Below, piece after piece: positions 2,884-5,929 of a stretch of 39,497 nt of DNA; the stretch's first letter is position 1; the number at the start of each line of letters is the position of its first letter. This stretch comes from a virus (Duplodnaviria > Heunggongvirae > Uroviricota > Caudoviricetes): IMG/VR virus record IMGVR_UViG_2778261536_000006; one strand, given 5' to 3'. The position numbers and the translations under genes were made by a program. The notes under the pieces were generated by a model. The model had not been told where the DNA came from. It worked only from the letters and a program-made list of their open reading frames with translations, and made no database searches.

Positions 2884-3242
2884 TTCTTATTCTCCGGTGC
2901 TTTTGGCATTACTGCCCAGTGAGTGATATTGACGTTTTCAAGGTCCCCGACCTGAAATGTCCACTGCCATTCTCCGGTTTCTTTTTGTCCCCAGGTGTAC
3001 CAGAGAGAACGCCAGCCAATTAGCCAGCCTTCTCCGTTAGCATCAAATAACAGAACACTTTCATTTGCTGGTGGCAGTTCAGCTGACACTGGTATTATTT
3101 TGTTTTCCAGTGCCGTACATTTAGCTTCAAGCGCATCGAATTTACGTACCAGGTACTCAGCATTTGTTTCGTTCACTTTCAGATCTCGCGGTACACATTT
3201 CCCGCGAAGAAACCCTTCCATTTCGAAAACATTCATGCGCAT
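2880..3242 (-). CDS. DUF551-like phage protein
   Basis: 120 aa with Trp-rich C-terminus ending ITHWAVMPKAPE, resembling the DUF551 signature. Confidence 0.4.
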   Translation of the reverse strand: MRMNVFEMEGFLRGKCVPRDLKVNETNAEYLVRKFDALEAKCTALENKIIPVSAELPPANESVLLFDANGEGWLIGWRSLWYTWGQKETGEWQWTFQVGDLENVNITHWAVMPKAPENKK

Positions 3243-3769
3243 TTGCGTAACTCCGATAACTCGTTAAAACGTTCCATAAACATCCCGTAGGCATGGCCTG
3301 GTGACAGTGGAATAACTTTGAACATCTCTGTCGCCGGGATACCTTCCAGTACAGGCCAGAAAGAGCCATCATCAAGCCCGAGATCGCGGCGTTCGGTTGC
3401 CAGCATAATGAGATCGGCATATTTCACTGGCGTGCTCATAACAGGAGGTAACCCGTATTTCTCACGGATTACGGCGTCTATTTTTTCTTCCATCCGTTTA
3501 TAGTCAGGAAGAAGGCGTTTCAGTGGTGCGGGGATGTCCTGGCAATATGCTTCTGTTGCATCATGCATTAACGCTTCAAAAGCAAATTCCTGCGGTACCA
3601 GCTGGCTGCAAAGCACCGCATGTTGGGCGACGCTGTAGAAGTGTGGAAGATGTCCTGCAAAGCGACAGATATTTGAAAGGGAAACCGCGATATCGTTAAT
3701 AACGATGTCGTCTTTATTTATCCTGTCATAATAAAAATGCTTCCCGGAAAAAGTTTTAATAAATGACAT
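3233..3769 (-). CDS. HD-domain phosphohydrolase (YfdR-like)
   Basis: HD-type motifs; start moved to the internal Met at 3769, which has GGAG 6 nt upstream (track ORF runs to 3796). Confidence 0.6.
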   Translation of the reverse strand: MSFIKTFSGKHFYYDRINKDDIVINDIAVSLSNICRFAGHLPHFYSVAQHAVLCSQLVPQEFAFEALMHDATEAYCQDIPAPLKRLLPDYKRMEEKIDAVIREKYGLPPVMSTPVKYADLIMLATERRDLGLDDGSFWPVLEGIPATEMFKVIPLSPGHAYGMFMERFNELSELRKCA

Positions 3770-3861
3770 TTTGTTCTCCACGTATATGCGCTGCACCGCG
3801 CTGAATTCGGGTAAAAGGAAGCCCTCACCGTCCGGCGATTATTGAGTCAATTACATTTCCA

Positions 3862-4260
3862 TAAATGCCCCCGTAGGGGCGGTTAGTTTCTCCACAAAAC
3901 AGAGAAGAACACCTGCGGTGGCAGCCGCCCGGATGGATTGGGTTATGAGCCCGTCGTCCGGTGATGCTCTTCTCTGTTTTGTAAAAAGGACGGTACCAGC
4001 CGGAAGCAAGGGTACAAGCTGGTACCGCCAAGACTACACACAGCATAAAGTTGTGGTGCCGGGTGCCTCCCGGTGCCTGGCGAAGGTTGCACACCAGGCG
4101 GGTGGGTATCCACAGAAGGTCGACTGTCAGCCTCAACCTTAACCCGCGTGCGCTGAGCCGCATTCACCACAACGCTAAGGATTCTCTCTGGTTGAAAATA
4201 CTTAGCTGTTATGTGCCTGTCTTTTCACCACTTCAGGCTCGGTGGTATCCTTTTAAGCCC
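3862..4260. other. GC-rich, hairpin-dense non-coding island (possible structured RNA)
   Basis: No protein-like ORF on either strand; perfect 15-bp inverted repeat 3894-3908/3968-3982, perfect 10-bp inverted repeat 3991-4000/4018-4027, further stems at 4075-4099 and 4116-4140, GGTGCC x3 at 4055-4077. Confidence 0.4.
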
Positions 4261-4282
4261 GTATACATAAAAGGAAAATCAA

Positions 4283-4528
4283 ATGACTTTTGATGAAAAA
4301 GAACTTGATAATGCAATTAATAAAATCATCGTAACGTCGCTCTTTTCCTGTCTCAGCGACACTCAGCAGAAACAGTTCTACGAATCGGCTTTCAACATGA
4401 TCGAGCGTTGTTGTTTCTGCGATGCCGACGAGTTACCTGAAAAAATCAGGAAACAGTTGGCTGATGCTCTTCGAGTGCGACTTTCTGACCAATTTTCTGA
4501 AATGTACTCTCCGAATTTGGACAAATAG
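4283..4528 (+). CDS. Hypothetical protein (81 aa), antisense to the early-left operon
   Basis: ATG with AAAGGAAAA upstream; overlaps the 3' end of the convergent ORF 4446-4721; coding status uncertain. Confidence 0.3.
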   Translation: MTFDEKELDNAINKIIVTSLFSCLSDTQQKQFYESAFNMIERCCFCDADELPEKIRKQLADALRVRLSDQFSEMYSPNLDK

Positions 4529-4721
4529 AAAAAGGCCATTTCCATTCAGGGTCTGATGGAAAGACTTCAGCCTGTTCCAAAGCACGGCGTAAAGAGAATA
4601 CAACTCCAGCCATAATCTGATGTTTCCCATTGGTCCAGCTATCGCCGCTCTGATCTACAGGAGCGGCTATGTCGTATGACCAAACGACTTCACCACTATT
4701 GTTTAAAATCTGGACTTTCAT
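4446..4721 (-). CDS. Hypothetical early protein (91 aa)
   Basis: ORF in operon orientation with GGAGG 12 nt upstream; overlaps the convergent plus-strand ORF; uncertain. Confidence 0.3.
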   Translation of the reverse strand: MKVQILNNSGEVVWSYDIAAPVDQSGDSWTNGKHQIMAGVVFSLRRALEQAEVFPSDPEWKWPFSICPNSESTFQKIGQKVALEEHQPTVS

Positions 4722-4729
4722 TTTGTTCT

Positions 4730-4951
4730 TTAACCTCCAGATTTCCGCGCATCTAAAGGCGCATTCTCATTTGGTGTGAACTGAATAGTTGTGCTGATAT
4801 TGATTAATGCCCCGACACACAAGACTACGCACTCAGAGCAGATAGCAACTTCATCTTTTCCGCCTTTGGCGATGATTTTTTTTGCCTGCAGCTCGTTTGC
4901 GCCACAAAACGAGCATGTGAAATAACGGTTCATTTGCGCTCTCTTACACAT
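4730..4951 (-). CDS. ClpX-type C4 zinc-finger (ZBD-like) small protein
   Basis: CSFCG...EVAICSECVVLC matches the CxxC...CxxC pattern and spacing of the ClpX N-terminal zinc-binding domain; first gene of the leftward operon. Confidence 0.5.
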   Translation of the reverse strand: MCKRAQMNRYFTCSFCGANELQAKKIIAKGGKDEVAICSECVVLCVGALINISTTIQFTPNENAPLDARKSGG

Positions 4952-5126
4952 AGTATTTAACGAATCATCCGGTCATTCATACGCCACCGGCGGCTACTTC
5001 GTGTTCGTCCTGACTGTTCGTTTTTGACATTTACTGACCGCTTACGACACATGCACCATGCACCGTGTTGCAACTAGATTTTGTTGTAATCCTGTAGTTG
5101 GTCTGGAACAAAAGATAAAATTAAAA

Positions 5127-5163
5127 TGCGATATACGCAAGTAATATTTTGCGAGATGTGCAA
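5127..5163. promoter_or_regulatory. Putative left operator sites (TTGCG/CGCAA half-site motifs)
   Basis: TGCGATATACGCAA (5127-5140) and TTGCGAGATGTGCAA (5149-5163) share half-sites with the cI-cro intergenic sites. Confidence 0.35.
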
Positions 5164-5175
5164 ATTATGGGTGAT

Positions 5176-5196
5176 AAAAAGCCACCTTTCGGTGGC
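5176..5196 (-). terminator. Rho-independent terminator downstream of the repressor gene
   Basis: Minus strand reads GCCACC-GAAA-GGTGGC followed by TTTTT, just 3' of the cI-like stop. Confidence 0.55.
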
Positions 5197-5216
5197 CGAT
5201 GGATGGGATATTGAAG

Positions 5217-5909
5217 TTAATTATGTCTCTTAAGGGTTTGCGACTGACTGATTAAGACCTTTCCAAAGACCATGAATCGGTGTTCGTTTTCGCTAGTAAT
5301 TCCCCATTCACGGTAAATCTGGTTATCAGAAATCACCAGCAGTTTGTCAGGAATCATTTGAAGTCTTTTAACGTATATTTTGTCATCAAAACCAAAGACA
5401 TATATACCATCACCATCAAACTGATTGATGCTGACATCAACGAAGATGAGATCTCCTGGCTCAATGGTTGGACACATACTGTCCCCACGAACGTTGATAA
5501 CTTTGATGTGATTGGCTGGTCGTCCGCCGAACATTGATACAGCATTATCAGTTCTGTATTCGATGGCATGAATCACATCAATGACATCACCGCCCTGGAT
5601 AAGGCCATTTCCCGCACTGGCACTGATATCCAACATTTCAATACGGAACACATCCTTCACCTGCGCAACATCCTCATCATTACTGTTTTTATATACAGTA
5701 TTACTTTTGAGGGCAGAGGTAAAGAGATCAGCAATATCAACACCTAAGCTCTTGGCAATATTACTCAGTGTTTGTTCGGTAAATTGTTTCTGCTTACCCG
5801 TTTCTAAGCGCGAGATGTTCGCCGCATCTACTCCTATTGCTTCAGCGAGATCGGCGATTTTCATGTTCTTCGCTTGGCGAAGTTGTCTGACTCGTTTTCC
5901 TATGTTCAT
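5217..5909 (-). CDS. CI-like phage repressor (HTH-XRE plus S24 LexA-like peptidase domain)
   Basis: 230 aa; N-terminal HTH and C-terminal S24 motifs (GDSM...KRL); divergent from the Cro-like gene. Confidence 0.85.
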   Translation of the reverse strand: MNIGKRVRQLRQAKNMKIADLAEAIGVDAANISRLETGKQKQFTEQTLSNIAKSLGVDIADLFTSALKSNTVYKNSNDEDVAQVKDVFRIEMLDISASAGNGLIQGGDVIDVIHAIEYRTDNAVSMFGGRPANHIKVINVRGDSMCPTIEPGDLIFVDVSINQFDGDGIYVFGFDDKIYVKRLQMIPDKLLVISDNQIYREWGITSENEHRFMVFGKVLISQSQTLKRHN

Positions 5910-5929
5910 GCGTTTATTACATTTCTTTA

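Follow-up and report, generated by a model that had tools for sequence, protein, structure and literature searches.

What is encoded by a hairpin-dense island, rich in guanine plus cytosine (GC), that lies between genes of a prophage early-left operon? The question is raised by positions 3862–4260 of a Caudoviricetes sequence of 39,497 nucleotides (nt) (IMG/VR record IMGVR_UViG_2778261536_000006; the whole stretch is referred to here as the window), where an earlier note made from the sequence alone had proposed a structured RNA or a multi-hairpin cis element. The island is probably a composite non-coding RNA locus that belongs to an SfV/e14-like prophage and runs along the minus strand, as part of the early-left (pL-type) operon. 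The composite consists of a pseudoknotted five-helix domain of the STnc100 type, a linker, a DicF-like terminator, and a long three-way-junction hairpin; its RNA structures, strand, conservation, modularity, and family relationships emerge directly from the comparisons presented below.

A non-coding and structured island

The GC content is 0.575–0.585 at 3900–4199 and 0.39–0.46 in the flanks, in line with the GC-rich core described earlier. About 650 base pairs (bp) had been considered free of protein-like open reading frames (ORFs), and this holds for 3797–4282, where no credible ORF is found, but not for the right part. There, an 81-amino-acid (aa) protein-like ORF on the plus strand (4283–4528; phrog_3311) with a good Shine-Dalgarno sequence occupies the right third of the gap, and the non-coding island is therefore about 3797–4282. 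Each of the six frames of the window contains at least three stop codons. Substitutions show no periodicity by codon phase (11/11/11 against e14, 18/15/16 against ST64B), and homologues of the island differ by 1-nt indels. Together with covariation and strand-asymmetric G·U pairs, the missing codon periodicity argues for a structured RNA rather than decayed coding sequence, as had been proposed.

When 3860–4290 was folded, the minus strand reached −183.7 kcal/mol (z = −6.7) and the plus strand −166.8 kcal/mol (z = −4.8); shuffles never equalled either value (0 of 100 for the minus strand). All inverted repeats and stems reported for the island were present on re-examination. The repeat 3894–3908/3968–3982 is perfect and has a longer version of 25 nt (3894–3918/3958–3982; 84% complementary), the repeat 3991–4000/4018–4027 is paired at 10 of 10 positions, 4075–4099 is a hairpin (H4 of the core), and 4116–4140 is a local hairpin. 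An additional inverted repeat, 4050–4058/4165–4173 (9/9), is the closing helix of the core and encloses most of the GC-rich part. The triple GGTGCC (4055–4060, 4062–4067, and 4072–4077) is present too, and is a by-product of hairpin H5 (CCGGGUGCCUCCCGG on the plus strand) and the flanks of H5.

Folding and covariation across homologues support the helices of the core and of the three-way junction by compensatory changes. In two respects the earlier picture had to be revised. The island had been matched to no RNA family, whereas the Rfam/Infernal scan gives STnc100 (RF02076) on the minus strand, just below its gathering score; at the gathering threshold, Rfam has no match in the window. Moreover, what had been treated as a single element comprises at least three separable modules that recombine independently. 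A scan of the window for tRNA and tmRNA genes returned none, and a promoter scan returned none convincing for the RNA on either strand.

A pseudoknotted core of the STnc100 type

The core covers 124 nt (4050–4173, minus strand) and is a GCGGCU variant of STnc100, recognised by the sub-threshold Rfam match and by covariation. In the permissive Rfam scan, 4203–3980 (minus strand) aligned with positions 1–206 of the 206-position model at 43.4 bits (E = 4.7e-8), which is below the RF02076 gathering score of 47 bits. Sub-threshold matches of 29–42 bits were also obtained in SfV, ST64B, phiES15, P1-like phages, the dicF–dicB spacer of Qin, and e14. The five helices are P1 (4173–4165/4058–4050), H1 (4161–4146), P2 (4145–4142/4103–4100), H4 (4099–4075), and H5 (4073–4059).

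Scanning genomes for the 20-nt motif ACCGGGAGGCACCCGGCACC gave 120 loci, nearly all in Enterobacterales and many with two or three tandem copies. Across the 120 aligned cores, P1, H1, P2, H4, and H5 are paired in 91.3% of cells, compared with 40–46% when the partners were slid, and double-change cells number 418 against 148 ± 12 in shuffles (0 of 500). H5 is fixed by the scan bait, so that the motif inflates its apparent invariance; the window carries H5 exactly, and the H5 of Qin covaries (CCUGG/CCAGG). Within the family, covariation extends to P1, one pair of which is UA in 80 cases and CG in 30; P1 encloses GGUGAAU and ACC-CCGGGAGGCACCCGG-CACC, the window having GUUGUGGUG/CACCACAAC. These junction strands, GGUGAAU and ACC-H5-CACC, are near-invariant across Enterobacterales. 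The window H1 does not have the sequence CCCCC-loop-GGGG, and cmscan marks non-canonical pairs there. With GCGGC..GC-A-CGC, the variant still makes this 5-bp stem, including a bulged A, and the columns pair in 99.3% of cells (CG 96, GC 19). In the GCGGCU subfamily, H1 is GCGGCUnAGCGC-A-CGC in place of CCCCCunnGCGG-A-GGGG, the stem being kept by compensating bases; the subfamily has 17 members in the sample, to which the Qin copy, identified afterwards, can be added as one more of this type. P2 (GGGU/ACCC) and H4 (GCCUGG../..CCAGGC) are both formed in the window. Over the core as a whole, G·U pairs outnumber A·C pairs by 135 to 56 on the minus strand.

The segment directly after the 5' strand of P2 (AAGGUUG, 4140–4134) pairs with the H4 loop (CAACCUU, 4089–4083) to form a pseudoknot. 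The same pairing is made with other sequences elsewhere: AAGGCUG/CAGCCUU in phiES15, UGGUUAU/AUAACCA in P1, and, for example, AGCCACAA/UUGUGGCU in canonical members, with 86 different helix sequences in 111 sequences. Comparing the longest helix with mononucleotide shuffles was too weak a test (7.2 vs 6.3 bp), and partner permutation was used instead; matched partners gave a mean helix score of 15.0 (6.3 bp) versus 10.6 for permuted ones (z = 17.5; 0 of 2000). The pseudoknot appears not to be part of the current RF02076 model, since the cmscan consensus line shows nested pairs only.

Compared with STnc100, a family that includes EcOnc27/sRNA103 downstream of stx2B and has PasD as a relative, the island aligns over the full length of the model on the operon strand. 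Helix order (P1-H1-P2-H4-H5), pseudoknot, the exact CCGGGAGGCACCCGG hairpin, the GGUGAAU and CACC flanks of P1, a 3' intrinsic terminator, and carriage by prophages are shared. The differences lie in H1 (GCGGCU...GCGC-A-CGC versus CCCCC...GGGG, a variant common to P1-like phages, phiES15, ST64B, Qin, and ~12 chromosomal copies), in the 5' leader, and in the 3' part, which is DicF/RprA-like. Furthermore, the island is located beside the repressor in the early-left operon, whereas canonical members occupy the late region, downstream of Q/stx and ahead of nanS-p or a holin. The 5' leader (4174–4251, minus strand) is conserved in K-12 e14 and partly in Cronobacter phage phiES15, where the blastn match covers 4207–4251. 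In the minimum-free-energy (MFE) fold it forms one hairpin at 4247–4226 (ACCAC-N10-GUGGU) and another at 4206–4174, just before the core, and it contains no conserved promoter of its own. A tRNA-like reading of the core, with acceptor-like and T-like stacking, was considered and rejected, as the helix count and the sizes and sequences of the loops are at odds with it.

The linker and the DicF-like terminator

On the minus strand, the core is followed by a single-stranded linker, UUUAUGCUGUGUGUAGUCUU (4030–4049), and a Rho-independent, DicF-like terminator (3983–4029). The terminator has a GC-rich stem of 12 bp, GGCGGUACCAGC (4029–4018) pairing with GCUGGUACCGUCC (4000–3988), and then five U residues (3987–3983); a U-tract follows the hairpin on the minus strand only. 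The stem covaries, being replaced by other self-complementary sequences in ST64B, phiES15, and viral contigs. The linker is retained in ST64B and phiES15, although their terminator stems differ, and also behind other upstream modules in viral contigs.

The DicF model (RF00039) matched 4042–3988 at 19.4 bits (E = 0.13), under its cut-off of 48 bits; the e14 copy scored 28.5 bits (E = 4e-4) and true DicF 76.7 bits. Window and DicF are identical at 44 of 62 positions. As in dicBF of Qin, the setting is a lambdoid prophage, in whose repressor-proximal leftward operon a non-coding stretch ends in an intrinsic terminator; the segment GGCGGUAYCAG...terminator...UUUUU is similar, and an STnc100-type core is adjacent. 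The order is core and then small RNA (sRNA) in the window, but sRNA and then core in Qin, and dicB follows in Qin but not in the window. The 5' single-stranded part also differs, with UGCUGUGUGUAGUCUU in the window and UUUCUGGUGACGUUU in DicF, and the targets are therefore probably different from those of DicF.

The 16-mer UGCUGUGUGUAGUCUU (4045–4030) is identical to a stretch of RprA (sequence from PMC5606850 and PMC7311995), and stands directly 5' of the terminator hairpin in both RNAs. A local alignment between the window and RprA covers 19 nt with 18 identities, and the phiES15 copy matches at 37 of 47 positions through the RprA terminator. The likeness does not extend over the full length of RprA, including its rpoS-pairing 5' part and central hairpins: the window is without similarity to RprA nt 1–60, and the Rfam scan of the window gave no RprA match at E ≤ 10. 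RprA is also a stand-alone, Rcs/Cpx-regulated gene of the core genome, in contrast to the prophage operon of the window, and its known hairpin for pairing with rpoS, csgD, and hdeD lies at about nt 31, not in the linker block (PMC5861431). The linker is a candidate seed, Hfq site, or RNase E site, and the RprA-identical stretch may be a prophage mimic of RprA or, if read from the opposite strand, a sponge.

The three-way-junction hairpin

Directly downstream of the terminator, 3982–3894 (minus strand) folds into an 89-nt three-way-junction hairpin with a lower stem of 21–25 bp in the MFE structure. It carries two arms, a conserved hairpin A (CACCGGACGACGGGCUCAUAACCCAAUCCAUCCGGG) and a variable hairpin B (GCGG-CUGCCA-CCGC). 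An apex-motif scan of viral contigs found 120 loci representing 53 variants. In all 28 of 28 real variants, 18–21 positions of the 21-nt lower stem are paired, with compensatory changes at positions 4, 9, 11, 12, and 15, and hairpin B covaries from GCGG/CCGC to GCUG/CAGC. G·U pairs number 41 and A·C pairs 5, which identifies the minus strand as the sense strand. In viral contigs the hairpin nearly always stands directly after a terminator U-tract; it has no Rfam family match and is a candidate RNase III site. A retron msr/msd origin of the long inverted repeat was considered and rejected, given the lack of a reverse transcriptase nearby and the sense-strand G·U pairs of an operon helix.

Genomic context and modularity

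A cI-type repressor with a helix-turn-helix and an S24 peptidase domain (5217–5909, minus strand) places pL upstream of the island on the minus strand. A terminator-like hairpin (5197–5180) is followed by leftward ORFs of 73 aa and 91 aa, the island, and yfdR, and identical RefSeq loci continue with further genes after yfdR up to the integrase. This puts the island within the early-left operon and predicts minus as its sense strand. On that strand, it is flanked upstream by the 91-aa ORF (4446–4721; phrog_3195) and downstream by a yfdR-like HD 5'-deoxynucleotidase (3233–3796; RefSeq annotation, with weak Pfam YfbR-like/HD_3 matches). The first ORF after the putative pL (4733–4951, minus strand, 73 aa) has a ClpX-type C4 zinc finger (PF06689, E = 1.4e-10), and no N-like antiterminator was recognised among the first ORFs.

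The stretch is present in 2788 of 5426 complete E. coli genomes (about half), and in many E. coli the loci are 97–100% identical and annotated as "hypothetical protein" or "frameshifted". The island is 98% identical to phage SfV, whose authors annotated terminators there. Compared with SfV, the window lacks yfdP–yfdQ: 3797–3880 matches upstream of SfV orf30 (yfdR-like), and 3869–4445 matches downstream of orf32. These matches have 12 nt in common, within a small GC hairpin, GCCCCCGUAGGGGC (3867–3880), which is terminator-like on the plus strand, marks the deletion junction, and occurs twice in SfV (SfV locus positions 1125–1208 and 2501–2512). This suggests that yfdP–yfdQ were lost by recombination between repeated intergenic hairpins. 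Exchange of modules is also seen among viral contigs with the three-way junction, of which 27 of 100 have the STnc100 core upstream and 73 other upstream modules. The commonest of these 73 keep the linker/terminator module, while in some it is diverged or missing; one of the other upstream modules (ACACCGGRUUGUCAGGUUGACCAUACGC...), which viral contigs carry ahead of this 3' module, is the sequence found upstream of dicF in Qin.

To the right of the island, the 81-aa ORF overlaps the 3' end of the 91-aa ORF by 83 nt. A weak plus-strand promoter read by eye (TTCACC-N16-TATCCT, 4224–4251) is directed away from the island to the 81-aa ORF and is conserved in e14. K-12 e14 has the same layout with the unrelated genes ymfI/ymfJ, and the plus-strand ORF starts ~30–36 nt past the right edge of the island in both. 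In the related phages mEp460, Stx2a_WGPS2, and ST64B, genes for isrK and C4 antisense RNA lie right of the ymfL-like gene (~5650–5920 of their loci); at Rfam gathering level, neither has a match in the window.

Copies in the K-12 prophages e14 and Qin

The entire island is present in K-12 e14: by blastn, window positions 3869–4251 correspond to 5082–5462 of the e14 locus at 90.9% identity. The e14 homologue of the island carries the coding sequence (CDS) ymfH (b1142; 5070–5381 of the e14 locus), for which no relevant literature was found, and K-12 ymfH is probably not a protein gene. In Qin, the dicF–dicB spacer (3436–3585 of the Qin locus) holds an unannotated STnc100-variant core (34.4 bits, E = 1e-5), which begins right after the dicF U-tract and ends ~25 nt before the dicB ATG. 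Mapped from its published length, the end of the 72-nt DicF would fall in the first bases of the P1 helix of this core.

A study of extracellular RNA reported an abundant 35-nt RNA from K-12 e14, GAAAAAACUGGUACCGCCAAGACUACACACAGCAU, marked "+st" (PMC4398507). It maps to 5224–5258 of the e14 locus (plus strand), exactly on the linker-to-loop segment, with one end at the terminator loop and the other at the UUU|AUGC junction. Because the other e14 read of that study is sense to ymfL, "+st" may state the true orientation. There would then be an antisense RNA with perfect complementarity to 16 nt of RprA; if "+st" merely names the reference strand, the predicted processed sRNA has been observed directly in this read.

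A proposed mechanism and its alternatives

By analogy with the dicBF operon, pL transcripts would either stop at the terminator (3983–3987) or read through it. RNase III, which is double-strand-specific, could cut the long helices on both sides, namely core P1 stacked on H5 upstream and the 21–25-bp stem of the three-way junction downstream, and RNase E might trim in the AU-rich linker. Such processing would free an Hfq-type sRNA of ~60–65 nt, made up of AUGCUGUGUGUAGUCUU, the terminator hairpin, and the U-tail, that would act in trans. The terminator and the processing sites may at the same time punctuate the operon and set the level of the downstream mRNA, from yfdR onward. For DicF, RNase III has been reported to make the 5' end of the 190-nt precursor and RNase E a 53-nt form, with termination giving the 3' end (10.1101/2023.04.14.536235); alternatively, RNase III yields a 72-nt form (PMC5069750). 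Members of the STnc100 family are expressed, as one of 11 copies in EDL933 was verified by Northern blotting (PMC5331693), the Hfq-bound EcOnc27 overlaps STnc100 (PMC12711010), and PasD has RIL-seq partners (10.64898/2026.05.13.724894).

Several points weigh against this explanation. We infer the expression of the island RNA, its processing enzymes, its Hfq dependence, and its targets, and the Rfam scores for STnc100 and DicF are both under the curated cut-offs. With no convincing promoter of its own, the RNA would need pL for its transcription, and pL is repressed in a lysogen. The 35-nt K-12 read is reported as "+st", antisense to the favoured strand. RNAduplex pairing with ftsZ (−80..+45) was no better than with shuffles, and since this was equally true of DicF itself, the ftsZ-leader duplex test is uninformative. 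Finally, a simple sRNA model based on seed pairing does not explain the role of the folded core.

The island could instead serve only as cis-acting punctuation of the operon, in which the terminator (tL-like), the RNase III hairpin, and the folded domain attenuate, process, or stabilise the early-left mRNA and protect a long untranslated stretch from Rho, with no sRNA acting in trans. The position of the island between ORFs within an operon fits such a role, as do variant cores that lack a terminator and lie 25–60 nt ahead of dicB, tciA, and further ORFs, the three-way junction that is almost always placed between a terminator U-tract and the next gene, and the terminators annotated at the locus by the SfV authors. 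However, the linker/terminator module is conserved as a unit behind varied upstream modules and resembles the trans-acting sRNAs DicF and RprA, while STnc100 family members bind Hfq and accumulate as discrete sRNAs. A purely cis-acting island is hence possible but doubtful, and punctuation in cis is compatible with, rather than exclusive of, the composite RNA locus. Of the regulatory functions suggested for the island in the earlier note, a processing site agrees with the present results, which point to a terminator and probable processing sites, and an antitermination-type RNA finds no support in them. Like the put RNAs of HK022, the island is a multi-hairpin RNA downstream of an early promoter, and no N-like protein was recognised among the first ORFs, so that it might modify RNA polymerase for processive read-through of the early-left operon. 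Yet a blastn comparison (word size 7) of 3797–4460 with the complete HK022 genome yielded nothing beyond chance (E ≥ 0.95), the domain has a strong terminator of its own behind it, and the family also occurs as tandem stand-alone genes and in late regions after stx, many of its members being terminated sRNAs that stand alone or short elements in a 5' UTR, which makes a put-like element very improbable.

The strand and the role of the core bear on the remaining alternatives. Should the plus strand be the functional one, AAGACUACACACAGCA would be perfectly complementary to 16 nt of RprA and might act as an anti-sRNA, a sponge like AgvB and AsxR of prophages. This would agree with the e14 read reported as "+st" at 5224–5258, with the ymfL-sense orientation of the other e14 read in that paper, and with the position of AsxR antisense beside canonical STnc100 in Stx2 phages. 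It is nevertheless quite unlikely: the plus strand has neither terminator nor promoter for such an RNA, G·U pairs in the helices become A·C on it, it folds more poorly than the minus strand, every Rfam match is on the minus strand, and cutting a minus-strand RNA at UUU|AUGC and within the terminator loop would account equally well for the ends of the 35-nt read. The core itself might be a regulatory domain that binds a ligand or protein, being riboswitch-like or a dock for a phage or host protein, and that controls the next element, which is the sRNA in the window and small cell-division inhibitor genes elsewhere. The five-helix junction with its pseudoknot and near-invariant junction strands would suit such a domain, and cores are found before dicB (Qin), kil (phiES15), tciA–C (P1-like phages), and the DicF-like RNA of the window, as well as in 14 chromosomal copies upstream of a KdgM-family porin. 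In contrast, the downstream genes are heterogeneous, in about half of the copies a terminator comes next as in ordinary sRNA genes, no alternative pairing of an anti-terminator or anti-Shine-Dalgarno kind was identified, and the scan motif exaggerates the constancy of H5, leaving this reading unlikely. A real or recently decayed ymfH-like protein gene is hardly credible. K-12 has a ymfH CDS, RefSeq, by way of PGAP, lists a "frameshifted hypothetical protein", and PHROG families exist for ORFs on both strands, but these frames differ among records and strands, they are set against the stop codons, the even codon phases, and the 1-nt indels, and covariation tracks the RNA helices.

Distribution and implications

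The composite RNA locus means that a stretch present in about half of the complete E. coli genomes is a conserved RNA locus behind hypothetical, frameshifted, or ymfH annotation. It links three sRNA families that are usually handled apart, namely STnc100/PasD, DicF, and RprA, and extends STnc100 to a sub-threshold subfamily in P1-like and SfV/ST64B-like phages, Qin, and e14, while giving the family a testable, pseudoknotted architecture. With an STnc100-type helix placed where RNase III is reported to generate the 72-nt DicF, prophage sRNA biogenesis and dicB control become directly testable in K-12. Relative to the literature found, the GCGGCU sub-threshold subfamily, the pseudoknot, the conserved three-way junction, the RprA-identical block, and the re-reading of ymfH and of the dicF–dicB spacer are new.

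The recurrent position of the core may be a clue to its role: variants precede dicB, kil, tciA–C, and the DicF-like RNA, and canonical members precede holins and a KdgM-family porin, although independent contexts are few. It could be speculated, with rather low confidence, that the core is more than the 5' half of an sRNA: a portable RNA domain, pseudoknotted and with its own biochemical function, such as ligand or protein binding or a dedicated processing platform for RNase III or RNase E, which prophages place beside toxic host-takeover functions, namely DicF-like sRNAs, dicB, kil, and tciA. The locus would be of greater interest if the core had such a function.

Fourteen chromosomal STnc100 copies, mostly in Kosakonia, Klebsiella, Raoultella, and Enterobacter, are located no more than ~200 nt upstream of a KdgM-family porin gene (PF06178), and 9 others are upstream of a P21-type holin. 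Tandem arrays of 2–3 copies with a spacing of ~220–560 nt occur in Superficieibacter, Citrobacter, and Enterobacter. In Stx2 phage F004 (locus positions 2501–2760), a canonical STnc100 (207.7 bits) is located 75 nt after stx2B, and AsxR (88 bits) follows immediately, convergent on the opposite strand.

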